This document shows positions 317 to 35,052 of a stretch of 64,000 nucleotides of DNA, one piece after another. The DNA is taken from NCBI GenBank assembly GCA_000091205.1, contig AP006490.2, one strand, 5' to 3'. The first letter of the stretch is position 1, and each line of letters starts with the position of its first letter. Under the pieces are notes generated by a model, which did no database searches, was not told where the DNA came from, and saw only the letters and a list, made by a program, of their open reading frames with translations. Origin of the DNA: Cyanidioschyzon merolae (lineage: Eukaryota). A program made the position numbers and the translations under genes.

Positions 317-1237
317 TCAAAGCGAGCGGAAACGTTTCTGACTTGGCGTACGGCGCCGAGTGCGCAACCACTGCCAGTCCAGCGTTGGCAGAAGCGTGCA
401 CAAGGCATCTTCTAGTCGCGGTTGATGACCATGATCTAAACGCCACCAGTACTCGACGACGTTCCAAAACACGAGTGGTGACACCTGTGCCATTTTCGCT
501 GGTCGCAAATTCTCTCTATGTTCAGGAGGCATGCCGTAGACCTCCCGAATGATTTCCCGCAGCACATCCACAGGCAGACTGCGCACATGGGTGTCTTCGT
601 GCATTGCCGTGCGTGCGCCCATCTTGGGATACTGCACGATCCAAAAGCGAGACGCATTCCCGGAAGCACCAGTGTCAGCGTGGTCGGACTCCTCGCGTAC
701 CACGTGATATGAGCGTGCGAGTGCCGCTCGGTACCGATCCGCCGCTCGTACCTCCTGGTCGTGTTCAGTGCGCGCTTCACGCAGCGCTCTGCGAAACGCC
801 TGTGCTTCCCGAGCACTCCCCGCTGAGCCCGATAACGCGTTTACGAGTTGCGTTCCCAGTGCAGCAGTCGCCTCAGCGGGTTGAATCGCTGCATCCGTTG
901 CCAGTTGTTTCGCACCCCGGGTGCCAACAGGTCGCTTTCTATTTCTGGACGCAGTGTTCGTGTTCGTGCTCGGTCTTCGTCGATGGTGTGGCGTCTCAGG
1001 CACAGTGCTTTCCAGCAGAATCGTATCCAGGGGCTGAATATCCGCCGCAGTCTCCACTAACCGCGGTGGAACGCCAGCCCGCAGACGCTGACATGCAACG
1101 GGTACAGCGAACACCTGCTCAAGCCGCTGTCGCAGAGCCTCCAGACCGTGCTCGCCGGTCAAGTCGACCTCGTCGAGCACCTCCGCACGACCGGTACCCA
1201 CGTGCCGCACACATACACGAGCACAGTTGCGAGACAT
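317..1237 (-). CDS. hypothetical protein (306 aa ORF, no recognisable domain)
   Basis: Long GC-rich ORF on the minus strand. The overlapping plus-strand ORF is Pro/Arg-rich and looks spurious. No motif recognised. Confidence 0.3.
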   Translation of the reverse strand: MSRNCARVCVRHVGTGRAEVLDEVDLTGEHGLEALRQRLEQVFAVPVACQRLRAGVPPRLVETAADIQPLDTILLESTVPETPHHRRRPSTNTNTASRNRKRPVGTRGAKQLATDAAIQPAEATAALGTQLVNALSGSAGSAREAQAFRRALREARTEHDQEVRAADRYRAALARSYHVVREESDHADTGASGNASRFWIVQYPKMGARTAMHEDTHVRSLPVDVLREIIREVYGMPPEHRENLRPAKMAQVSPLVFWNVVEYWWRLDHGHQPRLEDALCTLLPTLDWQWLRTRRRTPSQKRFRSL

Positions 1238-1482
1238 AGACTAAGAAATGAGTGGCGATACGGAGTAGCCGGTCAGGGCGCCACACGGACCATTGGTGCG
1301 TCAGCGTGTGGTCGATTTGCGGCCGCGTTCGTATCGCTGGTGTTGCGCTATGCGCCGACTCCAGGCTTTCGCTCGCTCCTTACTGGGCATTGTCGATACC
1401 TACATACGTACAGACGTACGAACAAATCGTAGACTCGGTGGAGTTGACGCGTTGACGGACTGGCGAACGACGGACGAGACGT

Positions 1483-2100
1483 ATGGCCTGTGCGCAAACC
1501 ATGTCTCTTTTGGTTGAAGACGAGGAGACCGGCCACGCTGACAAGGAAGGTCAAATCAGCGGGGCGCGTGTTCGGAAGGTGGTGCCAGCGCCCTGGTGTC
1601 GCAACCCGTTGGTCGAGATTCTGGTGATTTACAACGCCGACTCGACACTCGTGGGAGAGGTTCGATATTTTTTGCAAAAGGTGCTATTTCATAACTACTG
1701 CGCTGCTTGTGTGCTGACGCACGGACGGCGTAGCGAGAAGCCCGAGTGGGTCGCGCTCAAGTCCGGGCAGCACGACTGGGGTTCCAGGGTTCGCCTCCGG
1801 AACGTCCACCGAGACGAGATAGGACCAGAGGCCCGAAAGGTCGCCGGCAAACATCTGCCTTGTGTGCTGGGACGACTGGAGAACGGGTCGTACTTGTTGC
1901 TGCTCACGCGCGAGGAGCTCGAGCTCTGTAACGGCCACGTGGGCGGGTTCCGGGAGCGCCTCAGCGAAACCCTGGTCCGGCACGGTCTCTTTGTCTGGCT
2001 GGATGGCACTACAGGGGACGCGACCTTAACCAATGGTGCCTGCAAGATGGTCGCGGAGCACCTCGAGAATACGAATGCGACTGTAACGCATTCTCGATAG
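1483..2100 (+). CDS. hypothetical protein (205 aa)
   Basis: Uninterrupted ORF with plausible composition. No family recognised by eye. Confidence 0.3.
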   Translation: MACAQTMSLLVEDEETGHADKEGQISGARVRKVVPAPWCRNPLVEILVIYNADSTLVGEVRYFLQKVLFHNYCAACVLTHGRRSEKPEWVALKSGQHDWGSRVRLRNVHRDEIGPEARKVAGKHLPCVLGRLENGSYLLLLTREELELCNGHVGGFRERLSETLVRHGLFVWLDGTTGDATLTNGACKMVAEHLENTNATVTHSR

Positions 2101-2982
2101 GGATGCTAGTCTGTGGTATATTGGTTGTGTGTTTGAATTTCACTGCATCCGAGCAGAAGCTCCCGGATGCGTCCGTGTTACGGGCAACCAGGACAAAAAC
2201 CCGGATTCTTCCTCGAATGCTTCCACTGTTGACGGGCCCAGTAGAGTTTTCCGGTAAGGAGCAGACAGCGGCGACATGCCGGCACCGTCCGCGTGCCGGC
2301 CTGAGCGCAAAACTCGCATCCAGACCGAACCGTTTTTGGCGGTAAGATGCGGATGTTTGCCCGATGCAAGGTACGGTTGCATGCCCCTTGAAGTGCTTTC
2401 TCGTGCGAATGCCACATTTATGTTCGTGAACACGATTGCTCATCATGTTGTTGGATACGGAGATCGATATAGCAATCAGACAGGAAGGATCCATACGAAC
2501 GGCCTGCGCGGTGCATTTGAAATCTCTTTTTTCAATCCATTATCGGCGTTGTTTGAACGCCGCCCCATACCACGCTGATTTAGCTGCTCCTTAAACCCCA
2601 GAGTACCTCAATTGTGGACCCGCTCTTGCAGTGAACGCTGGCGCACCTATTCTTGCGGTAGTCATTCGACCGCGGCGCTGAACAACGTTCCGAATGGCGC
2701 AGCGTGCCACGCCCGTGATAACTCCCGCTTCTGGGGTTCTGTGCAGTCCTGGGGCTCCCAGACTCGTAGCGTATTATTCTTGTCTATGCACGGCGGGTCC
2801 GGGTTCCCGTGCGCATCCCAGGATATTGCACTGGTTTGACGCTTGGGAACGTGTGCTCCCGACGCAAGGCGCCTCAGACTCGCATCGACTCGGTTTACGG
2901 CAGGGGCTCCTGCGCAAAGCCTTCATGCTTCGATACGCAACGATCTTGACACTTCGAAGCGCTATGATGAGCGAAGCACCCG

Positions 2983-3309
2983 TTGTACGCAGTTTTGCTG
3001 CGTCGTTCCGTGCAGGCCTCTGACGCACCTGTTTGCGTAGCAGCGGTCAAACGTGGAACGTCAGCAGACGAAAACTGCCCTGACGCATCGATTATACGCA
3101 GTTTTGCTGCGTCGTTCCGTGCAGGCCTCTGACGCACCTGTTTGCATAGCAGCGGTCAAACGTGGAACGTCAGCAGACGAAAACTGCCCTGACGCATCCA
3201 TTGTACGCAGTTTTGCTGCGTCGTTCCGTGCAGGCCTCTGACGCACCTGTTTGCATAGCAGCGGTCAAACGTGGAACGTCAGCAAACGAAAACTGCCCAG
3301 TATCAAGCC
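2983..3309. repeat. Tandem repeat, 109-bp unit x3 (copies start 2983, 3092, 3201)
   Basis: Direct inspection shows the unit ttgtacgcagttttgctgcgtcgttccgtgcaggcctctgacgcacctgtttgc(g/a)tagcagcggtcaaacgtggaacgtcagcagacgaaaactgccctgacgcatc repeated with only a few substitutions. The six-frame ORFs repeat the peptide RSFAASFRAGL. Confidence 0.9.
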
Positions 3310-6318: not shown

Positions 6319-8332
6319 AAAGAATCCATAAGATATAAAGTTTCCATACATTTGATTCGAAGGCTGACCAAGAGATGCGCATGGACATAGAATCATGTAC
6401 GCTTCTAACTGCGAATGTCGTGCGCTCAACAAAAATTCTGTCCATTCCGTACGGAAACCCGAACGCTCATTCCATTAGGAATTGATTTCGTCTCAGTCAG
6501 TGAAAGCCCATCCAGGAGAAACGATTCATCTCTAAATGGATACTATAAGAATACCCATGCAACGATGCTGGTGAAGAAGAGCTAAACGAGCACGACGAAG
6601 ATGCCATGCCAAGCAGCGGTACGGTCATGTGCTCGCCAACAAATCGGCAATCGGACAGAACGGATCTGCATTTCATCCTCTTTAAAAAAAGCTCTCTTCG
6701 CGGCTTCTCAATCCCGAATGCTTTTGGCCTGCACTCAGAAAACGTCGCTTTCCACCACACAAAAGCGATCAAGGAGTGCCTGGTTGAGACTGTGATTGAG
6801 CTGCTCTCCGTGGGAGCCCGGGTTCCGAGGTTCAGTCGAGTCAACGGCGTCTCCGCTGTTGACGAAAGCTCTGTTTCGGCTCACGGCTCATTCGACGAGT
6901 CGTTCGCATTCATGGCACCGAGAGCTGCCGGACGGCATTCGGGATGGTGTCGGTTCTTGCTCATGGGAGGCTCGGCGAGCTTCTCCCGCACTCCTGCAGC
7001 GTTTCGAGCATCCGAGGGTAGTAGTTCCGGAAGCGGTGATGTCAGTTGTCCGCATTCCTGTAGCATTTTTTCATCAAAACTTGGTGCAACAAGACAGCTG
7101 ATACTCGGGATCCAAGTCTAACACGGCCTCATCTTAGGATCAGAGATATGCACACACGCTTTCCGAAACCTCAAGAGAAGTAGCTGTACGTGGGTAATCA
7201 GAACGTCTACAGAGCAGGCGCCTGAAAGTATCCAACGAAACATTAAACCCGTATGCGGGTCAATGTCAATTGCTTCATGAAGCGCACCCTGTGGGCGTAG
7301 TACCCCCAACGTACCGGTCTTCGAAAAGCGAGTACTCATCACACAGGGGCCTTGGAATGTCCATGATGGCAAATGACGCGAGCGAGCATCGCCTCGGATC
7401 GTCCAGACCCATCGTGTAGCGCTTGGCTTCGGATCGACGAACGTTGTATCCAACGGATGGTGGGCGCGTCATGCCTGTCCTGCTTGCATCGTACGCTCCT
7501 ACGCTCTGCTGATTAGAGCTCTCCAGCACAGAGCAGACTCCATCCACGAATAGAAGAGGATAATCAATTAGAAACTGATACACAATATGACGGACGACAA
7601 GCCGCCCGGACTTGCGTTATCGAGACAATCGAATGCGAGATTCTCTCTACAGCGTGATCCTAGCAGCAAGCATGCGCACAAGCATTTCCTGAATCGAGAC
7701 TTGGGCGCCTCCAGCTGCATCTCAAAAAGCGTCGTGCTTCCGGAACGTGCAGCGGTATTGTTTCGAGCGAGCATCCCATGTAATGGTGTGGTACGCAGTG
7801 CGGGCAGCATCTGGAAACGCTCAAGACCTCCGTTTCGACCTAACCATTGGCCAGGAGTGCGGGTATTGGATTCTCGCCCGAAGCAAGGCACTCGTATGGC
7901 ACGGTCAGCGATCTAGCAAGGCTGCGATACCGTCCATATGGATCGTAAATAACTTTCCTGGGCTATTGGTGAACGATCGTGAAAGCCCATGATTCGATGC
8001 TACTTGGCATACTGCGCAGCCTCTGATGCGCGGCTCCCGGATCACTGGTGGAAAGATGGGTAGTAACGTCCATCGTTGCACATCCACAGGCATCTCTCTG
8101 TGTCTCTCTAATGCAAGACTCTTGGATTCCTGTTGAAAAAAAGGGCGTTGGCGTCTGTCGCTGTACAAAAACCGGCATCTCAGTGCGAGTGCCGCTGCCC
8201 TCAGACTGCTGCGACCGCGAGTCATCGCAGCGCCGCTCTGAACCTTGATCAGATGCTTTCACCAAGCGAACCCAGTGCTCTTTGCATCCGCCTTGTTAAA
8301 AAAAGGTCATCAGGGTTGGCACAACAAGTTCG

Positions 8333-10011: not shown

Positions 10012-11370
10012 TCAACCAAACGTATCATAGTCACGGTTTGCATTACGGTTCGATGACCAGAAGGGTGCGCGTTGCAGAGGTCGCCACCGCGTGCCAGCGG
10101 CTGCTTGTCGCACTGGTGATATCGCTCCTGCTGGTGTGTCGAGAAGCAGAGGCTCGCTCAGAATCGGACCGACGGCAACGTTCGCGCTCGCTTCGTGATC
10201 GCGCTCCAGCGCCTGACTCGCCTCAGTGGCAGCTTCGTTTTCAGTTCGATGAGCGGCCCGCTCTTCCCAGCGGTAAATACACAGGCCAATGAGGATCACG
10301 ACAAGGCCAACGAGGTCATACCAGTCGACGGGTTGCGCCTCATCGCCCATGAAAAATGACATGCAGAATGCAAAGCTCACCAGAGGGAGACGGAGCGTCA
10401 TCAGCATCGTATAGAGCGTTGCACCCCCGTGTTTGATCACCAGGATGCCGAATACATTATACAAGATGTTCGCAATCATATACAGAAGAACTGGGAGCCA
10501 TGCCCCCCGACAATGGTCGCACGGCGGCAGGGATGTGCCGTCGTCCCCGCGCTCTATTATGCAGTCGGTGCGAAGGACATCTTGACCGAGTAAGCACTTG
10601 ATTCCGTTCAGAAGAAGGCTAGGCAAGTCATGCAGTGGGACGCGGGCCGGTCCAAAAAGCCGCAGGGAATTCACCGGAATCAAAGAGAGCCCGATCAAGG
10701 ACTGATACCAGGCGATGTAGAACATGACTATGAACACGCTCATCTCTTGGCCGCGAAGGGCGTATTCCTTGTACACATGGGCTAGAGATTGCGGCAGTTG
10801 TGCAGCGAGAAACACCAAATTGAAGAACAGGAGGTCAACAGTGCCTGTGCTTGTGCTCCCGCTGCTGTGGATACCAATGAGCCGTGGCGTTAACACGACA
10901 AGTGCCCCTCCGATGATGACGCCCGCCGCAACAAACTGATGTACGACGTATCGCGTCCCGAGAATGCAAGCGGACCAAAACATGGTCATGGGGATGCTGG
11001 CCTGGACGAGGATCATTTGTGTTGTGCCGCGAGTGTAGACACCTCCGAGGACGGTGCAGATTCCTGCGATTGCCTCTAGGAGACCGACAAAAGCGAGCTT
11101 GAGCTGCGGCAGCTCCTCATCTTCCAATGGCGACGGCCGATCGAAAACGCGCTTGAAGAGCAGCACGAGGCCCAGGACTGGCAAGTAAATCCAGCTCGTG
11201 ACCTGCGATAGAAAATAGGGATAATTTGGCATGGTATTTGTCATACGCTTGAAGAACACAGCATTCCAAACCGAGAAAAAAAGCAGTGCCGATGCATAAA
11301 CGCCCAGAACGCTCTGCTTTAGCCATCGGTCCGCAGGCTGGGACGGTTTCCAACTCGAAGCGCTGCTCAT
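10012..11370 (-). CDS. CRT-like (chloroquine-resistance-transporter-like / CLT) drug-metabolite transporter superfamily membrane protein, 452 aa
   Basis: Several blocks align to PfCRT/CLT: FKRMTNTMPNYPYFLSQVTSWIY (compare [23 protein letters not shown]), ILVQASIPMTMFWSACILGTRYVVHQFVAAGVIIGGALV (compare VLQLSIPINMFF..ILRYRY...GAVIIVVTIALV), and CDHCRGAW (compare CDDCDGAW). Many hydrophobic helices. Confidence 0.85.
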   Translation of the reverse strand: MSSASSWKPSQPADRWLKQSVLGVYASALLFFSVWNAVFFKRMTNTMPNYPYFLSQVTSWIYLPVLGLVLLFKRVFDRPSPLEDEELPQLKLAFVGLLEAIAGICTVLGGVYTRGTTQMILVQASIPMTMFWSACILGTRYVVHQFVAAGVIIGGALVVLTPRLIGIHSSGSTSTGTVDLLFFNLVFLAAQLPQSLAHVYKEYALRGQEMSVFIVMFYIAWYQSLIGLSLIPVNSLRLFGPARVPLHDLPSLLLNGIKCLLGQDVLRTDCIIERGDDGTSLPPCDHCRGAWLPVLLYMIANILYNVFGILVIKHGGATLYTMLMTLRLPLVSFAFCMSFFMGDEAQPVDWYDLVGLVVILIGLCIYRWEERAAHRTENEAATEASQALERDHEASANVAVGPILSEPLLLDTPAGAISPVRQAAAGTRWRPLQRAPFWSSNRNANRDYDTFG

Positions 11371-11562
11371 ATTGCTCGCTTATCGCGTGCGCTACGCTGT
11401 CGACGGACAACGTACCAGGTTTTTTCGTCGTTCCAAACAGGTTCTGGATCTCGATGTGGTAACGCAATATCTTTGCCAGAATAAATACAGGACGCGTGTC
11501 CACGCAGCGCCTCCAGCTAAACGAAAGCGAGTTCCGGGCCCAGGTGCGTACGCCGCAGACGG

Positions 11563-11722
11563 ACCGGAATCCTTCTACGAGGACTCGAAACTCGCAAGTG
11601 ACTGTTTGATGGAGCTTCTCGGTGATCCGCGGCGGAGTGAGCTCTTCATCGCCTTGACTGCAGCAGCGGAAAGCGGATGGGACTTTGTCGCGCTGGCTGC
11701 GCGATCGGCGAAGCCTGTGCTC
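11563..11722 (+). repeat. Dispersed duplicate (about 95% identity, 160 bp) of an internal trehalase coding segment (trehalase nt 17330-17491)
   Basis: Direct DNA comparison: accggaatccttctacgaggactcgaaact(c/t)gcaagtgactgtt(t/c)gatgga(g/a)cttctcggtgatccgcggcggagtgagctcttcatcgccttgactgcagcagcggaaagcggatgggactttt(c)gtcgcgctggctgcgcga(t/c)cggcgaagc(c/a)tgtgctc. It encodes the trehalase AESGWDF motif. It is not part of an intact gene here. Confidence 0.85.
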
Positions 11723-11819
11723 ACACACCAACAACGCCGCTCTAAAGTCGAACGACGTCGGGCGTGTACAGTAGTGGCAGCAACCGCGCCCTCGACAAGA
11801 CGTCTCCAACTGACGCGCA

Positions 11820-14270
11820 GACGCCTCCCCGTCTTATTGGACCGGCCACCGATTACTGCTTCCAACTTTTTCTCATATAGTTCCACTTTGAGAGGTTGCC
11901 GCACAAAATTCTCTCTTGTCAGCGCTGGAGGTCTTCTTTCCAGCACCGCACATCTCCTGATATTGATAGTGGCATTAAAGTCTCGATTCACAAACTCCAT
12001 ACGCCTCTTGCCATCATTGGTTGTACTTACTAGTGCAAGTGGCCCTCACACTTTTGCCCTCCTTTCCATTTGCTCCTCCGTCAGCGGTCTATACTTCTTT
12101 ACATCTTCAGGGCTCCTCTGGCACTTTTCCATCTCGACCCTCTGAAGTGTACAACCCAGCTCGTGGTGTGTATAAGATGTTCGGAACTCATCTATCGGTA
12201 TTGTAACGAAACGCCGTGCGCACTCCTTGTACACCCTCGTCGTTGGAGCTGGCGTAGCTCCTTTCTTGGGCGCTCAGCGCCCTGCTCCGTACGCTACTAC
12301 CAGCCTTTGGCTCTCGTCCTCCTTCAGGGCGTTCAACTCATTGAAAAAGTTCGCGAGCACGCGCTGCCTCCCACCGTATAGACTCATTCGCAGACGAGCC
12401 CGCCGGGGCTTTGTATACTCCTCCCGTAGCGCCTCCCGATGAGGAACACGAACTTCCATGACTTTCCGAGAAGCTTGAAAGTGTGCTCCGCGGCCCGTCA
12501 CCTCGCTCAAAGCTTCCAGGTGATCCTTCATTCCTGCATCCCATGCAGGAATTTTCTTCCTCGCATTCATGACTCCCGATTCTCGATAGTATCTTGCTCT
12601 CGGGAACCTCAAAAGACGCATGTCTTTCTGACGCAAGGAACCGTCAGTACTATCTTCCGCACGCTACGCTGCGCGATGGTTATGATACTCGTATTCTCAG
12701 GGTCCGCGCCAACGACAAAGTCGTTACCCTGCACTTTCTGCGTCGCAGGACCCGCCTCCTTCTCATCTTCCTGCTTCACCGCGTCAACGACAAGATCGTT
12801 ATCCTCCACCTCCTGCGTCGCAGGATCCGCCGCTTTGTTTTCTGCATCCTTCGTCACGGGCGAAGCCGAGAGCGGGACTGAACGATCTTTCTTCAACCGC
12901 CGATAGTGTACACACAAGGCTACTCCATCGGTTTCGATCAACCCAGTGAATACCTTTTGTTTGCTCATTTTGAGCCGTTTGAAATTGAAGATGTTCTTCC
13001 AGTACGTCTCCAGGTTTTCACCGATGAACTCTTCCCTGTTAACATCGAACTCGGGAATGATCTCCCTCATGATGCCATAAAGGATTCTGGAGTCGATAGT
13101 CACAAAATGTGACTTGAAGTTGCACAACGGAACGACACTGAAGCGCTTACCCACTAGGGCAGCCTTCCGTCTCTCCCACTCTTCATTTTTCTCTCACTCA
13201 GCTTCATCTCTGCCTTGCGTTTGAGTTCTCGGTCCAAAATCACGAAATACCGCAGGACGAGGCGATAGTATCTTTCCTTATCTTTTTCAACTCTGATATC
13301 TTTTCTGTTGGATTAACCAACCCCAGTACCGCACGATGCTCTTGTATAACCGCGCGGATGACGGAATCCTCATTCGTGCTCTTGTTTGACGCCTTCTTGT
13401 CGACGACTTCGACCTCATCTTCATGCTTACGATCTTTCGTGATGCCATTGATAATCGCCCATTTTCCATTGCGAGATAGGCTCTGGTAGAGTGCAACCAC
13501 GGCGCGTATCATGAAACGTTCGAGGTTCGCTGTCAAATGGTTTTTCAGATTCGTGAGGTACTTCATCGCCCCATATGTGTAAATATCCCCGTCACCCTTG
13601 TATCGAGTACCATTGAAGCTGTAAAAGGGATGTTTTTCGTGGAGGGCATGCATTCGCTCGTTTTCCCTCCGCGCTTCCCCTGTAACAAGCATCAGCTGAC
13701 GAATAAAGGTCATGTCGAAAAACTCGTCCGGAATTTCGACTGTTTCCATATGCGTCACGTCGCGATACATCTACCTCGCCAAATGCATCAGTCCTGACGA
13801 CGCCTTGACAATACTCTCGGAGTCTGACGCAACACGTTTTTCGATAGCGTCTCGCAACGTTTCCCTGTTGGGATCCTTGATATGTTTAAGAAGACAGCCT
13901 TTAACCACCATCTCGTCGTACAGTTGTCTTTTTTGCCGGCTTCGACGTAGGACCTCACCTTTTGCTTCTTTTTCTCTTCCTTTTCTTCTGGAATCGGCAC
14001 TGTTTTTTGTTTTTTTTTCTGGCAGCCGGCGACACTGGGCCTCCAAGATCGTGGACTTGCTTTTTCATATCTTTCCTTTTTTTGTTTTTTTTGAAAAGGA
14101 ACGCTCTTTGGACGCTTGTGGTATATGCTGCGAAAAAACACTTGACTAGACTTGTTTGAAGTTTTAAACAAAAATGAGCTGAAAGACTGTACTTTGCTAC
14201 GAACTGAACGGAAATCCAACTTTTTACAGCTGAACAACACGCTTCTGATCGAGATCACGTTTCCCTTCAA
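11820..14270 (-). mobile_element. Degenerate Fanzor/TnpB-like (IS605 OrfB-family RuvC nuclease) gene, about 2.4 kb. It has a Lys/Arg-rich N-terminus, is broken by in-frame stops and frame changes, and carries a conserved 3' noncoding block.
   Basis: The minus-strand pieces are co-linear with TnpB. (i) K/R-rich N-terminal pieces (13788-14270 and 13771-14046). (ii) 13240-13770, in frame with the preceding piece but separated from it by one TAG. (iii) 12609-13154 in another frame, containing [15 protein letters not shown] (a possible RuvC-I). (iv) 12274-12636, 12046-12234 and 11575-12000, all in one frame and separated only by TGA codons. Together these read LYGGRQRV...MYKECARRFVTIPIDEFRTSYTHHELGCTL, which matches the TnpB consensus YKaewyGr.vv.vdP.yTSq.Cs.CG. 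Then comes EFVNRDFNATINIRRCAVL, which matches RuvC-III DRDxNAAxNIxRR. I checked ATG GAG TTT GTG AAT CGA GAC TTT AAT GCC ACT ATC AAT ATC AGG AGA by reverse-complementing 11953-12000. The 3' end at 11820-11829 is revcomp GGGAGGCGTC, shared with the other copies. Confidence 0.5.
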
Positions 14271-16235
14271 CGGCGAGATACATGTCGTGTCTCATGTCTG
14301 CCTGATCTCCCAGGTGCGCTCACCGATCGATGAAGGTCACGTGTCCGACACCCCGCCTTGGCACTTGCGTGTTCGCATCGCGCAGCAGCAAAAATCAGGT
14401 GTCCTAAATCGAAAACTCACGTGGAGTAGTCTCGTGCTATAGGCTATGTCGCTGGTGCTGACGCTACTGCCCATCGCATTACCGCCCTGACAGACATGGA
14501 GCTGTTGGGGCCTGGCACGATACCTCTCGACGCTTCTATCAAATGCGTAGCGTTCTCTGCGGCTTACGCTTGTGTGGATAAGATACGCATCACTCTACTC
14601 AATAGGAATTTTGTTAGTTTTATTGATCGTAAACAAACAAGGTACGGTAGGATTCCTGAACACGGATACAAGTTTATTTCCTATGCTTGTAATGCATGCT
14701 GCACGGACGCTGGAATAAGGAACTGACATGAATTTTGCTTCTTTCCGGCGTCATGGGCTGGTACTGATGACCGTTCAAGTCATTTTCCATGCTATCGTCA
14801 TTGCCCAAGTTATGGTGCCTGCTACTGTCTCGGACCCGGTGATCTTGACAGAGGCATAGCACACAGGTAGCGTCCATATCTGCCACGACGTTTGAGCCTT
14901 GCATCTCGCCTGGCACGATCGAGGAACCCGATAAAAGCACATACTGTATTCTTATCTACTCTATAAGATTAGTTTCAAGAGCCTAACCTGTATGTAGTTG
15001 TGCAAGCACCAAACCGTAAACTTATCTGCACCCCCTACGCCCCCCGCCATTCCTTAAGCAAGCGGATGTTCGTTAGCCACCTGCTGATTTTTCCCTTCCA
15101 GTAGTAAAACTGCTCAAGAGACGGATTTTTTCTCTATCCCTTACCGTTCAATGGAAAGAAAACGTTTCACGACCATGTAGGGTAAATTAATATCCAATCA
15201 CAGACGTCTCCTAGCCTTTTCCACCGGCCCCCTGCTATCGGTTGCAGCTTCTCTTTGTACAATTCGACCCTGAGAGGATGTCCCAGAAAGGTGGACCGCG
15301 TCAGCTCCGCCGGTCGCGCCTCCATCACCATTCGTCTTCTGATATTGATGAGGTTTTGTCGAAAACGCTAGTGATAGAGCTGAGGTCAAGAAACGATCCA
15401 TCTTGACTGGCGCTATCAAACGATCGGTACCAGAAGCTGGAGGCTGCAGCCGGCACCAGGTGCTCTGGTGACGGCATGCTGGCCGTGAATAGTGCGCGAC
15501 GAAGCCGCACAGCATGCTACGGTTTCCTAGTACGTAGGTAAAACAAGCGCGTACCCTAAACGTTCATATTCAGGGCGATGACTAGTCGCCGCCACGGTAT
15601 CCTGGGAAAAATATGCGAGTGCACTTTGGTTGCTCGACTATCGAGCACCATCACGAGTATGGGTGCACTTCACTACACGGTTTCCAACGATCATTGAATC
15701 CACCATCATCCAAAAGTGACGAAAAGTCACAAGCGCACCGGCCTCGTACCTCCAAGTCAGGACTTGCCCATCAGCACGCACACAAATTTCGTGACCCGCT
15801 GCGCATTCACCAAACGAAAGGAAGCACGCGTTTCTTCATCCAGGGATAGAGGGTTCCAAATTCCTTCAGAGACTGCCGATGCTTCGCCCGAACCCAGACC
15901 ATCAGCTGCGGTATGCCCACGAGCATAAACCGGATGCCTGCGATTATCTGCGTCATCAATGTAAATCCTGCCCACACCAGTACCTCAAATGTGTGTCGTT
16001 CGGACACGACACAAGCTCGAAAACCAAGCCGTATGGGGCCTGTCGCAAGCGCCAGTGGCACACCAGGTTGCCAAGCTCACAAATGCCAAAGCACACCACG
16101 CCTATCCAAAAAAAGGCGGCAGCGTCAGCAGCGGAAAGCACCAGCTCTATTGATCAAGAAGCGCATCGATGCGCTTCTCGATCGACGAAACGCGAGCTCC
16201 GCGAGACGCATTCGCCATCAGTTGACGTATAGAAC

Positions 16236-18332
16236 GTGTGGTACTATGCAACTGTTCAGTACCGTAACCTGAGCACCATGACATTGAAAGTCATAGAAGC
16301 GTATGTGCATATGGCTTTTCGTCTGGGCGCGTTGGCGCCTGCATTTCCGAGTTCGGTTGTATACTGTGCCGCCAACTGCGCTGAAACTAGTGCCGGCTGT
16401 GAAAAGTCGCTGCTCGCAGTCGTTCAGCGACTCCGCATTTTCGCTGACTCAAAACACTTTGTGGATCTGCCTCTGCTACCTGGGCGAATACCGGAGCGGA
16501 TCATAGAGTACTGGGACGCTGAGTTCGGTCGCCGCGTTGTTGAGGAGCCGCTGGCGGGCCCAGGCGAAGCAACCAGCGGGCTCCGCGAGGCCGAGCGCGA
16601 GCCCCCTGTGCCCACCTTTCGGCTAGCACGTGTCGAGGGACCTGACACCGACTTCGAGGAGGTACGTCGCTTTCTGTTAGAGCACTTTGACTACGCGCCT
16701 GGTGGCGACTTGCTTGCCTGGATCCCGCGGGACTTGCCGCAGTTGGAGCTGGACCCTGAACCTGGAACGACAGCGACTGGTTCGCCACCGTTGCTGCACC
16801 AGATCTGGCGCTGGATGAAAGCACAGGATGTCGATGCGGGAAACTGGCTCATGGATATGGTCGCACGCTGGCGAAAACTCGGTCGCGAGACCTCGCCGAT
16901 GGTGTTCAGAGAACCTGAACGCTTCAGTCTGCTGCCCCTGAAACATCCATTCATCGTGGCTGGTGGTCGATTCCGCGAGTGCTACTACTGGGATACCTAC
17001 TTCATCGTTCGCGGCCTTCTGGTCTGCGGTATGTGGGAGACTGCGCGCTGCTGCGTTGAGAATCTTCTCGATCTGGTAGAGCAGTTCGGCTTTGTGCCCA
17101 ACGGTGCCCGCATCTACTATCTGAATCGTACCCAACCACCACTACTTTCGGATATGGTGCGCTGCATTGCAGAGCATGCACATGCCGGATGGGACGTGAT
17201 GACATTTTTGGGGCGAGCGTTGCCGCTTCTGGAGCGTGAATACAACTTCATGATGGAGCAACGGGCGGTAAAGATGCGCGCAGGGGGAACCCTAAATCGT
17301 TACCATGCGCCCGCAGCCGAAGGACCGCGACCGGAATCCTTCTACGAGGACTCGAAACTTGCAAGTGACTGTTCGATGGAACTTCTCGGTGATCCGCGGC
17401 GGAGTGAGCTCTTCATCGCCTTGACTGCAGCAGCGGAAAGCGGATGGGACTTTTCGTCGCGCTGGCTGCGCGACCGGCGAAGCATGTGCTCCATCCGAAC
17501 GCAGTTGATTATCCCTGTGTGTTTCAACAGTTTCATGCTTCGCATGGAACGCAATCTCGCTTTTCTCTACCAATGGTATATCAGCGGTAGCCGACCGGAA
17601 ACGGAAAAAGGTAGCATTTTCGAACAGCGGTTACCTGGAAATGAGGAGGTCCCCAATGACCCAGTGACAAGAGACTTGCTTGATCGAGTCCAACAGCGGG
17701 TCTCTACGATGCAAAAGTATTTATACGTACCAAGCCGGGATCAATGGATCGACTACGACCTGGAGGCCGATACAACGACCCTGCAAACGGTTGCAGATTG
17801 GCGGCAGACGGTGAGTTCGAGCAACTTTTTCCCGCTCTGGAGCGGCATCCTCGAGCATATCGAATCGGAACAAGCGGCTTCCATCGCGCGTGGCGTGCTC
17901 CAGTCGTTCGAGGAGAGTGGTCTCCTGCAAAACGGAGGCGTTGTTGCAACATTGGTGACCGATTCGGGTCAACAGTGGGATTACCCGAACGCGTGGCCAC
18001 CCGTGCAACTCCTGCTGCACGAAGCGTTTGCGTCGCTAGCGACGCAGTTTTCCGCGAATGAGCAAATCTCCAACCGAGCTCGCGAACTTTCTTTGCAGAT
18101 AGCCATCCGATTTCTGCGTTCTGTATACCAGGGCTGGCTTCGGAGTGGTGATCTTTTCGAGAAGTATCACGCGGAAAAGGTCGGAGAGAGTGGCAACGGC
18201 GGTGAATACGTTCCCCAGGTTGGATTCGGATGGACAATTGGGGTGAGCCTTGCGCTCTTGTCCAGTGTATGGCAGCTTGATCGAAGCCTGCTCGCACAAG
18301 TCTGGCAGAGGGTATCCGATGAAGCCACATAA
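16236..18332 (+). CDS. Neutral trehalase (glycoside hydrolase family 37), 698 aa from the first ATG. The probable start is the signal-like Met at about 16311 (MAFRLGALAPAFPSS).
   Basis: GH37 signatures: YCAANCA...LLAVVQRLRIFADSKHFVD, GGRFRECYYWDTYF, GPRPESFYEDSKLA, AESGWDFSSRW, QWDYPNAWPP. One continuous ORF with no introns. Confidence 0.9.
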   Translation: MWYYATVQYRNLSTMTLKVIEAYVHMAFRLGALAPAFPSSVVYCAANCAETSAGCEKSLLAVVQRLRIFADSKHFVDLPLLPGRIPERIIEYWDAEFGRRVVEEPLAGPGEATSGLREAEREPPVPTFRLARVEGPDTDFEEVRRFLLEHFDYAPGGDLLAWIPRDLPQLELDPEPGTTATGSPPLLHQIWRWMKAQDVDAGNWLMDMVARWRKLGRETSPMVFREPERFSLLPLKHPFIVAGGRFRECYYWDTYFIVRGLLVCGMWETARCCVENLLDLVEQFGFVPNGARIYYLNRTQPPLLSDMVRCIAEHAHAGWDVMTFLGRALPLLEREYNFMMEQRAVKMRAGGTLNRYHAPAAEGPRPESFYEDSKLASDCSMELLGDPRRSELFIALTAAAESGWDFSSRWLRDRRSMCSIRTQLIIPVCFNSFMLRMERNLAFLYQWYISGSRPETEKGSIFEQRLPGNEEVPNDPVTRDLLDRVQQRVSTMQKYLYVPSRDQWIDYDLEADTTTLQTVADWRQTVSSSNFFPLWSGILEHIESEQAASIARGVLQSFEESGLLQNGGVVATLVTDSGQQWDYPNAWPPVQLLLHEAFASLATQFSANEQISNRARELSLQIAIRFLRSVYQGWLRSGDLFEKYHAEKVGESGNGGEYVPQVGFGWTIGVSLALLSSVWQLDRSLLAQVWQRVSDEAT

Positions 18333-24245: not shown

Positions 24246-26554
24246 GGATTGTCGCCGACTTGCGTCTCCACTTCCGGAAACACACGAACGTCGTCCAGTC
24301 CCGACTTGGACGAAGCGCTCTTTCGAACCGAACGTGATACGTATGAAAGCGCTTTTGAACGGTATCCGGTGCCTGCACTTGCTTCAAGCCACGAACGGAA
24401 GCTGTTTTGGGATGCTTTGCACCCGTTCCGCCACGTCGGGAGATGTAGCTCGCCCAGCGCCACGCTTCTCGACGGGCTGCTTCCCACACGTGTACCCAGC
24501 TGACTGCGTTCGGTATGCTCCAGCATATCCTGGACAGTGGTGAAGCGGGTTCGCCAATGGACCCTGACGGTGAGGTGCGGAACAAGCGACACGCTCTCGG
24601 ATACCAGTGAGCGTCGTGCAGTGGGGAATCCCTGGTCATGGTAAACGATCCTCTATTCTCGGGAAAGATTCTAGCTGGTAGGCATTTAACCATGGCGCTT
24701 GCCATCGATGGGTGCAGTGAGAAAAACATCGAATCCTGCGAGTGAAGTCTTCTTTGCAGGCACGATACGCGTGTTCTGTGCTGAGATGCCCGCGTTTGCT
24801 GGTGCTATGTCCGGTGCTGGACTAGGATTCAACGCTTGGAAGCTCGTTTGGTGAATGAAACGCTCATTCTCGATAGTCAGACTGGAGCGTGATTCACGTG
24901 ACCCAGAGGTCTCCGAAGCACATGAGGGCTCGCTTCCCTGGGTATAGGCAGCGGTTGTATATCCCGGGCATTGCTGGTCAGATTCGTGGATCAATCATCA
25001 AAAGATATCTCGCCTTGACGCTATTTGGAAGCAGTGCTTCGCGCGGCTACCCGCACAGCATCGCGCCTGTGTTTTTGATCGACGGAACCCCCAGAGGAAC
25101 CGACGACGCGCTATTGTACGCGAAAGGTATCGACATAAGTGAAAACGCCCATCATGCCGCATCCGACCTCCAAGTTAAGCTAGTCACTGAACATGCTTCC
25201 CTTCGGAGTGCATGCCCAGTTCATATGTCACTCGGGGTGCTGTGTGCCTGCTGCTGTGCCCGGCAATGCACGGAGAGAAGACGCAGCGGCGGGTAGAATC
25301 GTGTGCATGAGCAATCTCGAAGAAACGAAATGCGCACTAGCAACTCGAGAACCTGGTGTTTGAATGGATATGGTGAGCGATGAAAGGGGAAAACATTCCC
25401 TGTATATTCGACCATTTACGTCTAAGAGGCAGGTCCTGCGAGCCGGATGAGTGTTCTGGGCCAGCGCTTTGTGTGCTTCTGCACTGGCGGGTGCTGAGCC
25501 AATACATGGCTGCTTGTCCGAAACGCATTTCATTCTGGGAATCGTAGCTGGTAAGCTGCGTAGGGGCGTCGCTATGGTCGCAGTGGACTCCTAGCACATC
25601 GCTTCGCGCCTCCACAGGCAGTGCTTCCGTATGCGCAGGATTCAGGCTCCCAGAATGATAATGCATCCCGATTTTGTGACTAGTGAAGCGTGCCTCGAGC
25701 CGACGCTCCCGAGAGTATTTCGAAGCCGTTTCGTCTCCGTACTGAATCCGCACCGGTTGTATGGGCGTTATTGCGGGTGCTCAAGACAGCCTCGGCAGTT
25801 TTTTGTCGCAGGAAATGACCAGAATCTCCGAGAACGAGTATAAATAATCTAACGTGGATGTAGCGTCAAGAATGATCTGCGCGTTCCTGGATGTCACTAT
25901 CCATCGCGGAATCTAGCATCCCTAGTCCATACAAGCATTCTGTCCAATAAACGATAATCTTCGATCAGCGCCGAGTACCCGCCTTGCGGAACCCGCAATA
26001 GCGCCTAATTCGCTGATGCAGGTGCATCATAGAGACAGGACGGCTTTGCCGTACCACAGAGGGCGTCGGCTCAAGCAATGCTTCACCTGAAACGGAGTCG
26101 GAGTACCTGATCATTCTGGGAGCCTCCAAATTGTACAGACAGACCGACTGCCTGCGGCAGCGCGAGGCGATGTATACTAGGAGAGCACCACGACCAGGAC
26201 GACGTCGAGACGGATTCTCCCCAATGCGAGCCCCAGAATATACTGCGTATCGGAGAGTCTGCTCAGATTTCACTACAACACCAGGCACTGGTGGCGGAGG
26301 CACATGAAGCACAAGTCTAGCAGAAACGTGCGGCTCGCGGCAACTTCCACCTAGACGGTAATCGTTCACCAATATGAAAACCTTTACCCCCTTTCAACGC
26401 TTATCATACAAGCCGAACGACATTGTTATCTCGTCACTAGTTAGCGCTTGCCTTCTCTTCTACCATGTATTCGAGCCTGCTTATCGATCCGGATGCTTCT
26501 GTGCTGTAGTAGCGCTGCATCCTTCGTCGCCGCTTCGCGGCGATCCTTCAAGCT

Positions 26555-28539: not shown

Positions 28540-28690
28540 TGTCGGCAAACGCTGTGGCGCCAGCGTAGCACGCGTGGTGACGAGAGCGAACCTAGTGGGG
28601 CAACCGCTCCTGATCGAGGTGTGCCAGGAGAAGCTGAAACCGATAGCATGCGGTCGGTCGAAAAACAAAAGGCTGGGAGGCGTCTCCATG
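28540..28690 (+). mobile_element. Solo fragment homologous to the 3' end / 3' noncoding block of the Fanzor-like element family
   Basis: ggggcaaccgctcctgatcgaggtgtgccaggagaagctgaaaccgatagcatgcggtcggtcgaaaaacaaaaggctgggaggcgtc aligns with the blocks at 34880-34976, 47590-47671 and revcomp 11820-11900. It ends in the shared GGGAGGCGTC. It lies in a convergent intergenic spacer. Confidence 0.5.
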
Positions 28691-29157
28691 TCGGTGCAGA
28701 GACGTGCACTCTATGGGTGTCACAGGGAGCGCATGCTGCTCGAAGGAGGCCGCTGTAGCGGAAAGCAACGCGTAACACCGGCAGTACGCGTGGTGCTTGA
28801 CGATGCAGGGATACACACACGGGGGCATGCTTGTGTCGAGGCCGCTTCGCATCCGAAAGCTAAGACAAAGACTGGTGCTGCGCTAGCGGACTAGGAAGAG
28901 AGAGACGGATTACCGCATCCGCGCGCTCCGAAAGGCAAACGTATTGCCGCAGAGACCTGCTGTCGTTCAAATCTCGCAAAGCAGGAAAGCCAGTATAGCG
29001 TATGGAAACAATGCTTGATCTGTGCGGTGAGTGTGCATCTCGACGCTGACCGCCGCAAAGGGGACTCGTGTACGACTCGTTGGGTGCAGCTGGCGCCGGC
29101 AACGGCATCACGCGACAGGTACCGTCACCAACACGGCCAAATCATTCGTCGAGCTGC

Positions 29158-32100
29158 TCAGCCGGGCTCAGATACGTTCGAGCGAAAGAATGCCCCCTTC
29201 GAGATCCAGGCTTTGACGCGTGCCCGCCGTCGCTCCCGGCACCGTCGGAGCAAATGACCCAACGCCTGCCCGTGTGCTATGCGGCTCGCTATACAGGCGA
29301 TATCCTCAAATGCAACGCATGCAGCGCAGGCGTCTGCATCGTTCTCTGGACTGGCGTGCCAAGTGGTGTAGGGCGTCGCGTCGACGACATGCGCATCCAG
29401 TGCGCTCTCGTAGCATCGATACTGGCAATGTTCAAAGTGAATGAGCGGATACACCGGGCTAATGCGTGCATCGGTGCCATTCGATGACCGCGAATCTAGT
29501 GCCAGACAACGAGGTGGATGCACTGCGTCCTCGTAGCGCAGCCTGATGACAAGGAGCGGTCCGTCCGGGTCGTCGGCAGCGTATGCGTACCGCTGCGCCT
29601 GGCGTATATCGCCGCCGCGCAGCGCACCCACGTACAGCAGGCGCAAGCCAGGTGCTGCGTCAAACGTATCGAACGGGGTTAGCGTTTCCAGCCCCGATAC
29701 CCGGATGCGTTGCCGAGGCCAGTGGACATATACGCGACGCGTGAACACACGAGCACCCAACTTGCCGTCAGTCTCGAGTGGAACGATATTCACACCGAAT
29801 TTGGCGGAGCCTAGTAGCCGCCACACCCCGGGCTGTGCAGATACCGGCACGACACAACAGAGACGCACGAGCGAGCCCTCGTATTTGGTTCGCAGGAGCT
29901 GTGCTAGGTCCAGTGGACAATCCCAAACCTCTACCTTGGCTAAATGTTTGCCCAGCGGGTCCGCCACGCCAAGCGTTAACAAGGAGCCTATTTTTGGCGG
30001 GAATTTGTCTACGTGTCCTGATGCGTGCACCGCATCCGTGCACGCATCGCTTTCGAGATGCTCAGGGTGCCCGCACGCAGACCAGGCGCCAGGCGTACGA
30101 GGCGCCGCATCTGGGCTCCACGAAAATATGGGTACAGGGCAGGCATGGAGTTGCCCGTGTTCAGCATCTGCGACGATCTGTGCGGTGTAGGTTGCGCTCA
30201 GAAGGTATCTTGGCTTTCCGGGGAGAGTTCCCGGCTGACGGGGTGAAACATAGGCCCCATTTTTGTCCAACTGTCGTTGTTGTTGGTGGTGGTGTAGCGT
30301 TTCCGCGACGAACCTTAGTGGATGGACTCGGTGCAGGACGACGTCCAGGGCGGGAACGGTGCCGCCCAAGGGATCGGTCTGTGGCAGGGTCACCGCCATC
30401 AATGCGGATTGCACACGACCTATTGCCTGATGAACGGAATCGCCGATACGTTTCATCGACCAGCGCTGCTTCTGGAACAGTGGCGCTGGATGGACGCTGT
30501 TCAGGGACAGGGTTAAAGAGATTCGCTCGATCTGTGCAGCCGCTGTACGGATGGAGCGCCTGCTGGCATGGTGCGGTGCCGCAGCGCTGCACTCTACCCG
30601 AGCCGCACCGATGTAAAGACAACCTGCCCTGGTCCATAGGCGATGAGGTGCAGAAACCGATCTGTAGCCAATCTGCGGTCGATATTGTAACGCTCGCTCC
30701 GTTGCTGCGAATACGCGCAGGTGATGCAGCCACGCTTCAACGGGCTGGGTACCTTTCGCAAAAACCAAGTAATGCCCGTCGCAAAGCAATAAGCATACAT
30801 GCTCAGTCTCGATGCTCGTTTCGCAATCGTAGCCTGGAACGAGGAGGAGTCTCATCGGGGGCAGATAACTAAAAGCGTCTGGAGCTCGAGCAATCGCTTC
30901 AAACATGGAACTAGAGCGTTGCTGTTCCATGCGACGATGGCAACGCCAGAAGCGCCCGATGAGTTGATACAGCACTTGCCATACGGTTAAGACGCGACCG
31001 AATAGTGCTTGCGGCACAGCGAGCTCTATGAGACTCATCTCGTAAATAATCAAGCACCAGTAACGACGAAACCAAGCAAGGGAACCTACTCGATTGACAA
31101 CCTGGGAGGCATTAACAGTCGGCTCGAAATCTTGCTGAGACACCAGCCAAAAGGTGTCCGTTGGATCCGGCTTTGGGTTTTCTTGAACGGTATCGTCAAC
31201 GCAGAAGAAACAGAAGAAATCCCACGCATCTAGGACTGCACCTTGGGCACGCAGTTTTGTAACAAGGCGCTCAGTGGCAGTGTCGTCGCGCCCAGTCGCA
31301 TGCAGCGACTCGAGTTTCGTGATCAGGGCATCCGCATCGTTGCGAGAGCACTTGAACCGGAAACGTATGCTTTCCCAGGGCGCAAACGCCGCACGAATCG
31401 CATGCACGGAAGGATGTTCCAGGTCGATATCACATGGAGGGCGCGGAAAACACTTTGGAACCAAAGCTGGCGACCAGTATCCCGTGCGGCGTGCCGCATC
31501 GCCGCGGAAGGCAGCATGTGCACCAGCCTTTGGGTCATGTTCAGGGCAGACAGGCAGTGACTGGATCTCTGGTGCATCCCCTGCTCCATGAGCATCGGTA
31601 CTTGTCTTGCTTCGATGGATGCTTGTCATTGGTGCCTCAGCCTTTGACGGTGGCGTGAAGCGTCGGGCCCGCGAACTGAGCGGTCTTGCAGGCGCTTCTA
31701 CCGAAGTCACGTCTGCAAACGGTGGTCGAGCGTGACAAACGGATATTCCATTGTCTTGATCGTTGATGTTTCCCGCCCGTTTCGAATTGTCCATGGAGCA
31801 CGGCGGCCTTTTTCGTGGAAGATTACTATTTGAAGCGGGCCAGATGCATCGCTTGCTGGGAGCTGCGTATGCATTGACGCACGAGCTCGGGCCCATATGC
31901 GCTACTTGTGGCTCATTCATTCCACAATCAATAGACATAGATGAAGCGTCTTGGTTGCGGAACTCGCATGGAAAAGCTCGCGAATTTGCAAACTCTTGCC
32001 GTATGTGACAATCCTCTATGGATTTGATCTCCGAAAACGGCGATGCATCACAAGCGACTGGTGGACGATTCTCTGCCTCCTCGCTAAAGAGTCGCGCGAC

Positions 32101-34210: not shown

Positions 34211-34460
34211 GTACGAAGCGTGTTTCACCAATGCGGGGGCGTGTCGGTCTCGCATGGAGCGCGAGCTGAAGTGCGACTGAGCTCCATGTTTTGACGAAAG
34301 ACCCAGACACGACCGCACGGACTTTATTGTGCATGAGACCCAAACTCACGGCTGTACCGACGTTAACCGCGTGTTCTTTGGAGAGTCACGTTGCACGGAG
34401 CGGAGATGCTGCATGGGCTAGCCAGCCGTCTTTATAGCCTTTTATTTCGGTTGTGTTTCA

Positions 34461-35052
34461 CACCCAGGTGCGAGCAATGAAATGCGATTTCGCGGTTCAT
34501 AGCAGGTACGTTCCAAGTGCGTTCTTTTTCAAGAATAAAAAATCCAAGGGAGAGGTATGCGCATGGAATCGGGGATCTTAGAGGCCTGTCAGCATCGGGT
34601 GACTGAAAAAAGACGAGGAAAAAATCCTCGTCTTGCCGCGCATTGCGCAAGGAAGAGCAAATACGGAAGAAGAAGAGTGGTGATAGTCGAGAAACGGAAT
34701 TCGCCCGACGCTACGTTGCCGAGACTCTAGTGGAAGACAAAGCACGAGTGCTAGCCATTTTCGCAATGGTGCGTTCCACCTGCGTCAATGCATGCAAGGA
34801 GTTCATCAATCGACACTTCAGTGGCACCATCAACATAAGACGATGTGTCGTGCTGAAGACGGGACACGAGAAGCTGATGTGATACAACTTCGTTGGACAG
34901 CCTCTCAGTCTCGAAGCATGCCTGGATAAACTGAAGCCGATAGCAGGCCGCTGGTCAAAATAGGCTGGGAGGCGTCACTGGATGGTTATCGGTTTACCGT
35001 CCATGGTCGTGGGTCAGTTTTTTTGTTTCATCGACATGTACATATAATCTGC
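34461..35052 (+). mobile_element. Internally deleted (non-autonomous) derivative of the Fanzor-like element: 5' end-like block, C-terminal RuvC-III fragment, conserved 3' noncoding block
   Basis: It aligns along its length with the copy at 47174-47745, with the 5' block and the last roughly 75 bp (up to the ATGTACATAT terminus) shared only between these two. The internal ORF 34643-34882 encodes ...RSTCVNACKEFINRHFSGTINIRRCVVL (compare EFVNRDFNATINIRRCAVL of the long copy). GGGAGGCGTC is at 34967-34976. Confidence 0.55.

Follow-up and report, generated by a model that had tools for sequence, protein, structure and literature searches.

In the 64,000-nucleotide (nt) stretch of Cyanidioschyzon merolae DNA analyzed here (contig AP006490.2 of assembly GCA_000091205.1; hereafter the window), a block at positions 11820-11960 had been described, from its letters alone, as a conserved noncoding segment at the right end of a Fanzor-type transposon and as a candidate omega-RNA scaffold. 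The block is instead the 3′ end of the open reading frame (ORF) of a Fanzor1 transposon of the CMe-1A family, and its identity as the coding C-terminal tail of this known element is virtually certain. Immediately downstream, on the same minus strand, lies a 101-nt module (11833-11733) that ends in a covarying hairpin exactly where family homology ends. By analogy with the solved Fanzor1 omega-RNAs, this downstream module is the better scaffold candidate. To the explanation as a whole, in which the block is coding tail and the downstream module the template of an omega-RNA, we assign a probability of about 0.6.

The block encodes the C-terminus of a Fanzor1 protein

Read in frame with RuvC-III, the block continues as ...RPPALTRENFVRQPLKVELYEKKLEAVIGGRSNKTGRR, and the minus-strand translation of the long element copy to which it belongs gives ...MEFVNRDFNATINIRRCAVLERRPPALTRENFVRQPLKVELYEKKLEAVIGGRSNKTGRRLRVSWRRLV...; the letters GGGAGGCGT within it code for Gly-Arg-Arg. 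Stops aside, all copies align in one reading frame running on from RuvC-III, and homologous proteins share the tail, so that the description of the block as noncoding was not borne out. The features of this region are as follows.

11959-11988, minus strand: RuvC-III codons NRDFNATINI, catalytic Asp at 11982-11980; read from the translation and aligned to the NRD motif of solved Fanzor1 proteins
11794-11940, minus strand: C-terminal coding tail ERRPPALTRENFVRQPLKVELYEKKLEAVIGGRSNKTGRRLRVSWRRLV, in frame with RuvC-III and making up most of the flagged block
11820-11829, minus strand: GGGAGGCGTC, Gly-Arg-Arg(-Leu), the divergence point of the long and short 3′ modules and predicted 5′ arm of stem-loop A (SL-A)
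11791-11793, minus strand: position of the family TAG stop, GAG in the long copy (family consensus ...TTTGTCTAGGGCG versus CTTGTCGAGGGCG in the window)

The 172 relatives retrieved in a protein search share 60-80% identity and come from metagenomes without exception. The RuvC-III motif is carried by 36, most of which extend through the tail. The consensus ending of the tail-bearing homologues is ...GRRLHVSWRRFV or, in a longer form, ...RPPEWTRENFVGQPLKVELYEKKLEAVVGGRSKKTGRRLHVSWRRFV, each followed by the stop, and the C-terminus of the published CMe-1A protein equals the consensus tail derived from 71 copies. Past GGGAGGCGTC come 10 further codons, a stop codon and a 3′ untranslated region (UTR) of ~58 nt. 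The copies share the block because they descend from one coding sequence.

The Fanzor-type assignment made in the preliminary description holds, and can be narrowed to Fanzor1. A search of cluster representatives gave 1753 relatives, and a profile built from 35 diverse ones (A7), searched against PDB chains, matched PpFz1 of Parasitella parasitica (9cf0, E=2.2e-21), SpuFz1 of Spizellomyces punctatus (8gkh, 1.3e-15) and GtFz1 of Guillardia theta (9cer, 4.2e-11). It was the deep profile alone that worked: PDB searches with a single sequence and with a shallow profile returned no matches. Pfam likewise gave none on the ORF pieces of the window and close homologues, and PF07282 (TNB/Zn-ribbon) matched distant relatives below threshold (E=0.03-0.09). 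The alignments of A7 to the solved Fanzor1 proteins take in an RP..L.R motif that opens the ~49-residue tail and is followed by a family-specific extension. In the profile alignments, PpFz1 and SpuFz1 end with this motif, which follows RuvC-III directly; a conserved Fanzor1 motif is therefore what the flagged block encodes in its first third.

The catalytic residues are congruent with this assignment. With the Fanzor1 triad taken as D...E...D in GxDPG, DEFRT[ST] and RDxNAAxNI, the window copy, whose ORF is broken, carries GADPEN, IDEFRTS and NRDFNATINI. Across the 35 sequences of the A7 alignment (P0006 numbering), the RuvC-I Asp (D484) and the RuvC-II Glu (E656) never vary; the RuvC-III Asp (D725) varies hardly at all (at least 90% conserved), and the Asn/Ala/Asn adjoining it are invariant. 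Between RuvC-II and RuvC-III, where Bao & Jurka (2013) place a C4 zinc-finger motif, family members read ...TSYTHHELGCTLQRVEMEKCQ..., a pattern of two His plus two Cys and not CxxC...CxxC; an AlphaFold2 model on a 49-sequence alignment, at a predicted local distance difference test score (pLDDT) of 37, was too poor to judge the zinc finger.

A decayed CMe-1A copy and its relatives

CMe-1A is a Fanzor1 element of C. merolae that encodes a single-exon protein of 734 amino acids, occurs in ~150 copies, each ~80% identical to a consensus of 3169 base pairs (bp), and lacks terminal inverted repeats (Bao & Jurka, 2013, Mob DNA 4:12). By blastn, the long copy matches this consensus (14319-11764 against 660-3137) at 85-88% identity over 2.5 kilobases and, judged by that match, belongs to the CMe-1A family, as a decayed representative of an element already described. 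Missing from it are the 5′ 635-660 bp of the published sequence (the TE-N2_CMe part). It begins with another module of ~670 bp (14992-14320, minus strand), common to L007, L052, L053, L017, L016 and L003 among the related loci (a sample of 80 metagenomic loci fetched from 520 matching stretches). Because this module differs from the 635 bp of TE-N2_CMe, the long copy is a subfamily variant of CMe-1A. Its 5′ limits were taken from the related loci, its 3′ limit from a covariance-model match and from flank analysis. The copies in the window are the following.

11733-14992, minus strand: long copy, a decayed CMe-1A-family Fanzor1 element (blastn to the published consensus, related loci, covariance-model match, flanks)
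34433-35045, plus strand: short copy 1, internally deleted and ORF-less, made up of consensus 786-965 and the tail; tail pseudo-codons 34799-34976, then a distinct 3′ module of ~70 nt to ATGTACATAT
47168-47738, plus strand: short copy 2, of the same type; tail pseudo-codons 47497-47673, 3′ module 47674-47738
15130-15349, minus strand: remnant of a short-type tail and 3′ module, AGGAGACGTC replacing GGGAGGCGTC; ~140 nt upstream of the 5′ end of the long copy
28578-28716, plus strand: solo fragment, tail and ~30 nt beyond GGGAGGCGTC, up to the long-type stop-codon region

The sequences quoted in the preliminary description were found where it had placed them, and GGGAGGCGTC does occur exactly in the four element copies that it named, at 11820-11829 (minus), 28675-28684 (plus), 34967-34976 (plus) and 47662-47671 (plus). 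A search of the window produced a fifth exact match at 39249 (plus), inside an unrelated Raptor-like ORF. Since 7 matches with one mismatch were found against 5.0 expected in the window, the 10-mer by itself is not significant and carries no weight alone. The weight is carried by the block after RuvC-III, which is indeed common to the copies. By tblastn, the long-copy tail matches 34799-34975, 47497-47673 and 15349-15209 (minus) at E=1e-12 to 4e-12 and the solo fragment at 1e-4, giving at least five copies, one of which (15349-15130, minus) had been overlooked. At the DNA level the long and short types are 66-71% identical (66% over 188 nt by blastn for the copy at 47xxx). The short copies consist of consensus 786-969 joined to 2840-3083, followed by their different 3′ module, of which 4 distinct copies were found, too small a number for covariation.

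Every copy in the window is a pseudogene. The long copy has suffered two in-frame TGA codons, one frameshift and the mutation of its stop codon to GAG, and the short copies are interrupted by in-frame stops. Most premature stops in the Fanzor relics (11950-12280, minus; 34880; 47540) are TGA codons that replace a consensus CGA (Arg), a pattern that is the signature of CpG-to-TpG decay.

Judged from these alignments, the CMe-1A family swaps 5′ modules as well as 3′ modules. Other related loci carry the published AT-rich 5′ module. Elsewhere in the window, two TE-N2_CMe-like copies (25383-25944, minus; 25968-26444, plus; 73-79% identity) form an inverted pair ~25 nt apart. Right ends and 5′ modules are also found as neighbors. 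In three related loci (L007:229-362, L052:1-53 and L053:1-55), the alternative 5′ module (TACNGGTTAGG...) is preceded, at a distance of 31-35 nt, by a right-end hairpin of CMe-1A type; at 15349-14992 (minus) in the window, the short-type remnant stands ~140 nt upstream of the same module. These arrangements suggest head-to-tail arrays or preferred insertion beside older right ends. One further locus (L023:648-797) has a tandem duplication of the right end's last 43 nt, comprising motif and terminal hairpin.

The element continues past the proposed boundary

The preliminary description held that homology stops at GGGAGGCGTC in both the long copy and the solo fragment, and took this point for the junction of scaffold and guide. 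Neither statement survived comparison with a larger set of copies. Past GGGAGGCGTC, the family consensus of the 80 loci reads GGGAGGCGTCTGCACGTCAGTTGGAGACGTTTTGTC TAG GGCGCGTTTGCCGCCACTACTGTACAC..CGTCGTTCGACTTTCGAACGGCGTT before the alignments collapse, and in 60+ distinct copies the conserved sequence runs ~97 nt further, across the stop codon as well as the 3′ UTR, to ...GGCGTT. The long copy stops at GGGAGGCGTC only in comparison with the short copies; against the 80 loci and the CMe-1A consensus it continues to 11733. The solo fragment aligns ~30 nt further, to ~28716. As conservation continues for those 97 nt, the flank does not begin at GGGAGGCGTC, and the strict form of the scaffold proposal, with the guide right after GGGAGGCGTC, is excluded.

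The true end is sharply defined. The last conserved base in the window is 11733, and exactly where the element ends nucleotide diversity steps up, from UTR values of 0.23-0.34 to 0.66 in the flank. In 42 distinct flanks, information is near zero from +8, with a weak TGGTG motif at +1 to +7. The published terminus, ...GAAAGGCG, falls inside the terminal hairpin and stops 2 nt short of the boundary found here. Like the published CMe-1A, the window element shows no terminal inverted repeats at its ends as read. It differs from the consensus in being a pseudogene with the other ~670-bp 5′ module, and in the version of its hairpin (CGTCGTTCGA/TCGAACGGCG in the window, GCGTTTTTC/GAAAGGCG in the consensus). 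The short copies bear their different ~70-nt module from the same starting point, so that the two types switch exactly at GGGAGGCGTC; this suggests that the 3′ module is exchangeable between subfamilies. The right end of the long copy comprises the following parts.

11733-11833, minus strand: 3′ terminal module of 101 nt, the best candidate for an omega-RNA scaffold; SL-A at ~11833-11794, SL-B at 11793-11772, motif CTGTACAC at 11771-11764, then the terminal hairpin
11733-11759, minus strand: terminal hairpin of 12 bp; 5′ arm 11759-11748, loop 11747-11745, 3′ arm 11744-11733, ending where family homology ends
11713-11732, minus strand: 3′ flank, putative guide-encoding segment; its first 7 nt, GTTGGTG, match the weak family-wide motif

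A covarying hairpin closes the 3′ module

The covarying element of the module is its terminal hairpin. Folded singly, the UTR of nearly every copy with an intact end forms a hairpin of 10-12 bp that ends exactly at GGCGTT, and it does so in two sequence versions, CGTCGTTCGA-CTT-TCGAACGGCG and GCGTTTTTC-TTTT-GAAAGGCG. A covariance model built from 18 copies (R1) finds one match in the window, 11833-11733 on the minus strand, at 110 bits; across the loci and the window it finds 86 (E up to 0.01), nearly all of them terminal modules of the 80 loci. Double-sided changes occur in 9 of the 12 hairpin pairs, and among 500 shuffles not one equals the real alignment in covariation or in its number of double-changed cells. 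The arms pair in 87.6% of cases versus 31-52% in slid controls, and canonical pairing reaches 86% on the sense strand versus 68.5% on the antisense strand. For 11724-11870 of the window, the predicted folding energy is -66.7 kcal/mol (z=-4.1). On the model-based alignment, RNAalifold returns three hairpins and a conserved single-stranded motif, CUGUACAC; on a plain MAFFT alignment of 64 copies it returns an empty structure.

Could such conservation reflect nothing beyond the recent transposition of a terminal sequence, that is, descent with no function? This null had been named in the preliminary description, and it accords with the state of the window copies, all decayed pseudogenes, and with the neutral decay that accounts for much of the variation between copies. 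However, the copies are old, at ~80% identity to the consensus and with long and short types as far apart as given above; selection at the protein level is evident in a position-3 to position-1/2 diversity ratio of 2.8; hairpin pairing has been kept through double substitutions and in two sequence versions; and the rise in diversity from ~0.3 to 0.66 falls exactly on the element end. Descent alone is thus a most improbable account.

Several other pairings were considered and rejected, each being without covariation support: a GAGGCGTCT/AGACGTYTY hairpin, a long-range GCAGTAGT/ACTACTGT helix, a small AGAC/GTCT hairpin, which is often broken, and an extension of SL-B through the stop codon (TAG/CTA).

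Constraint on the coding tail

In a rival reading, the block itself would supply the omega-RNA scaffold, or the 5′ portion of it, in overlap with the end of the ORF as in bacterial TnpB. Upstream of the tail, 121 codons show diversities of 0.112/0.085/0.274 at positions 1/2/3, a periodicity that betrays protein selection in the active lineage. In the tail the corresponding values are 0.180/0.157/0.212, positions 1 and 2 varying more than upstream (p=1e-5). Degenerate third positions are less diverse in the tail than upstream (0.209 vs 0.280, p=0.011), as are its synonymous sites relative to the whole ORF (0.206 vs 0.252, p=0.019). These depressed values speak for the block as scaffold, as do a 30-nt stretch, GAACTATATGAGAAAAAGTTGGAAGCAGTA, that ranks among the most conserved, the retention of the block in internally deleted, ORF-less copies, the ability of the tail segment GCAGTAGT to pair with ACTACTGT of the UTR motif, and the precedent of the GtFz1 and ISDra2 omega-RNAs, which overlap their own ORFs (PMC10432273). 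However, 6 of 109 equally sized ORF windows are as low in synonymous diversity as the tail, and the N-terminal half of the ORF is likewise weakly periodic. The reduced synonymous diversity is thus at most a hint of overlapping nucleotide-level constraint.

Structure also argues against the block. The compensatory substitutions that the preliminary description had put forward as a check show no excess there, the antisense control behaving alike: helices that involve the block or GGGAGGCGTC have double changes in 2 pairs only, a result equaled by 216 of 500 shuffles. An unbiased helix scan on the sequence alignment gave noise, at the same level on both strands. We consider it unlikely that the block is the scaffold or its 5′ part. 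Nonetheless, an omega-RNA may overlap the coding tail at its 5′ end, a notion that draws residual support from the reduced synonymous diversity and from retention of the block in ORF-less copies.

Comparison with known omega-RNAs

The omega-RNAs of Fanzor1 systems are encoded at the 3′, or right, end of the element (Saito, 2023, PMC10432273). Including the guide they measure 75-150 nt, and they consist of SL1 and one or more further stem-loops, then the guide (Saito, 2023, PMC10432273; Xu, 2024, PMC11423790). Right-end placement on the nuclease strand, a conserved end at the element boundary and copy-specific sequence after it are all seen for 11833-11733. In these respects the module resembles the omega-RNAs of SpuFz1, PpFz1 and GtFz1, which lie on the same strand at the right end and whose scaffold stops at the boundary with the copy-specific flank next. 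The likeness extends to length (75-150 nt with the guide versus ~100 nt in the CMe-1A module) and to the presence of stem-loops, one of them adjoining the guide; here the comparison is one of architecture, as the CMe-1A module is known from sequence. The short copies have a counterpart too: S. punctatus harbors ORF-less 'ghost' derivatives that keep the 3′ region (PMC10432273). There are differences as well. A 7-bp SL1 is not identifiable with confidence in the CMe-1A module, and SpuFz1 has 30-nt inverted repeats at its ends while the window element has none.

The 101-nt module fits this description of a Fanzor1 omega-RNA and the block at 11820-11960 does not; the block is therefore read as coding and the module as the likely scaffold template. 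Of the original proposal, then, the Fanzor1 element and the right-end location of the scaffold stand, and the segment was wrong, the covarying structure lying downstream. Its model was the ISDra2 TnpB omega-RNA (IS200/IS605), whose scaffold extends over the nuclease ORF's 3′ end and the right end and whose guide derives from the flank. In CMe-1A, by contrast, the 3′ module overlaps ~13 codons of the ORF, a long overlap is unsupported, and the covarying structured part comes after the stop codon; CMe-1A is also eukaryotic and lacks TnpA.

In the mechanism we propose, the ~100-nt module from about GGGAGGCGTC to GGCGTT (11833-11733) would serve as template of the omega-RNA scaffold, its predicted parts being, besides the terminal hairpin, two weaker ones and a single-stranded motif that is conserved. 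Transcription would continue 15-20 nt into the unique flank, from 11732 downward, and so supply the guide. That this module is the scaffold is, by its analogy to the solved systems, marginally favored over the converse. Tentatively, and at somewhat less than even odds, one may go further and picture intact CMe-1A as an active RNA-guided Fanzor1 with an exchangeable omega-RNA of ~100 nt, running from GGGAGGCGTC over the last ~13 codons to the hairpin. The exchangeability would follow from the switch of long and short types at GGGAGGCGTC, and the tail would possibly be needed in cis, as it is kept in the ORF-less derivatives.

A number of observations weigh against an omega-RNA encoded by the module. 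Covariation support within it is limited to the terminal hairpin: SL-B, with its GGCG/CGCC stem, is 95% paired but in no case changed on both sides, and breaks are frequent in SL-A and H1, the covariation of SL-A being weak. The alignment used for covariation had been fitted to the model, and the common descent of the copies inflates the shuffle tests. Apart from the motif CCACTACTGTACAC, sequence conservation in the 3′ UTR does not exceed that of synonymous sites. An Rfam 15 scan of 11000-15500 (E up to 10) gave three chance-level matches only, the coverage of Fanzor omega-RNAs in Rfam not having been checked. The window's own copy is dead, so that any function belongs to the family and not to the window locus. 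Finally, a subterminal hairpin could be a DNA-level transposition signal.

This last point amounts to an explanation of its own, in which the hairpin works as single-stranded DNA recognized by the transposition machinery, as in Helitrons, IS91 and IS200/IS605. It is attractive in that CMe-1A has no terminal inverted repeats, its target-site duplications are not determinable and its class is unknown, in that only 0-8 nt separate hairpin and element end, and in that Fanzor1 genes occur inside Helitrons. The head-to-tail layouts of L007, L052 and L053, where 31-35 nt separate a right-end hairpin from the 5′ module downstream of it, point the same way and, together with the tandemly duplicated right-end tip of L023, recall rolling-circle or one-ended transposition. 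On the other hand, the stem contains 135 G-U versus 16 A-C cells, which favors RNA, though single-stranded DNA of the top strand tolerates G-T; and the element lacks a CTRR end as well as any Rep/helicase or Y1 gene. We judge a DNA hairpin improbable as the explanation. Nor need it be the sole role of the hairpin, since RNA and DNA roles are compatible and the right end of IS200/IS605 does both.

As for novelty, the flagged feature is already explained by the literature: element, protein and tail were published in 2013, and Fanzor omega-RNAs in 2023. The 2013 paper predates omega-RNAs and mentions no RNA (Bao & Jurka, 2013), and none of the papers searched links a Fanzor omega-RNA to C. merolae. 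The flagged block is thus ordinary, the C-terminal coding sequence, in dead copies, of a transposon gene published in 2013. The by-product is a testable omega-RNA candidate for the red-algal CMe-1A, complete with right-end boundary, covarying hairpin, 42 natural flanks and a module-swap point. The prediction is quick to check, since C. merolae, a thermoacidophile, is amenable to genetics and abundantly covered by public RNA-seq. If it is true, it would provide a heat-tolerant pair of Fanzor1 and guide RNA for a family of genome-editing interest, and a eukaryotic OMEGA system that by nature tolerates heat and acid, its natural variants of guide and scaffold numbering in the hundreds; the understanding of these systems would be unchanged.

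Surroundings of the element

The window is intron-poor nuclear DNA of ~56% GC, with genes for Raptor, the second-largest subunit of RNA polymerase (Rpb2-family domains) and COQ7, and a BRCA2-repeat gene. About 40 nt past the right end of the long copy lies a 125-nt internal fragment of a trehalase-like gene (11562-11686), a duplicate, at 98% identity, of 17329-17453 in the ORF at 16236-18332, so that the element stands between gene fragment and parent gene; capture or a repair-associated duplication could account for the fragment. Two more diverged Fanzor1 relics, at 49405-50940 and 7049-7820 (both plus strand), share 25-45% amino-acid identity with family members, the former covering most of the protein, RuvC-III included (LHRDLNASINVRKC). 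Three tandem arrays complete the inventory: at 55150-56409, 9 copies of a 120-nt unit, 98-99% identical and located in ORFs that overlap one another on the two strands; at 32086-32535, inside the BRCA2-repeat ORF, 3 copies of a 150-nt unit; and at 2973-3298, 3 copies of a 109-nt unit.

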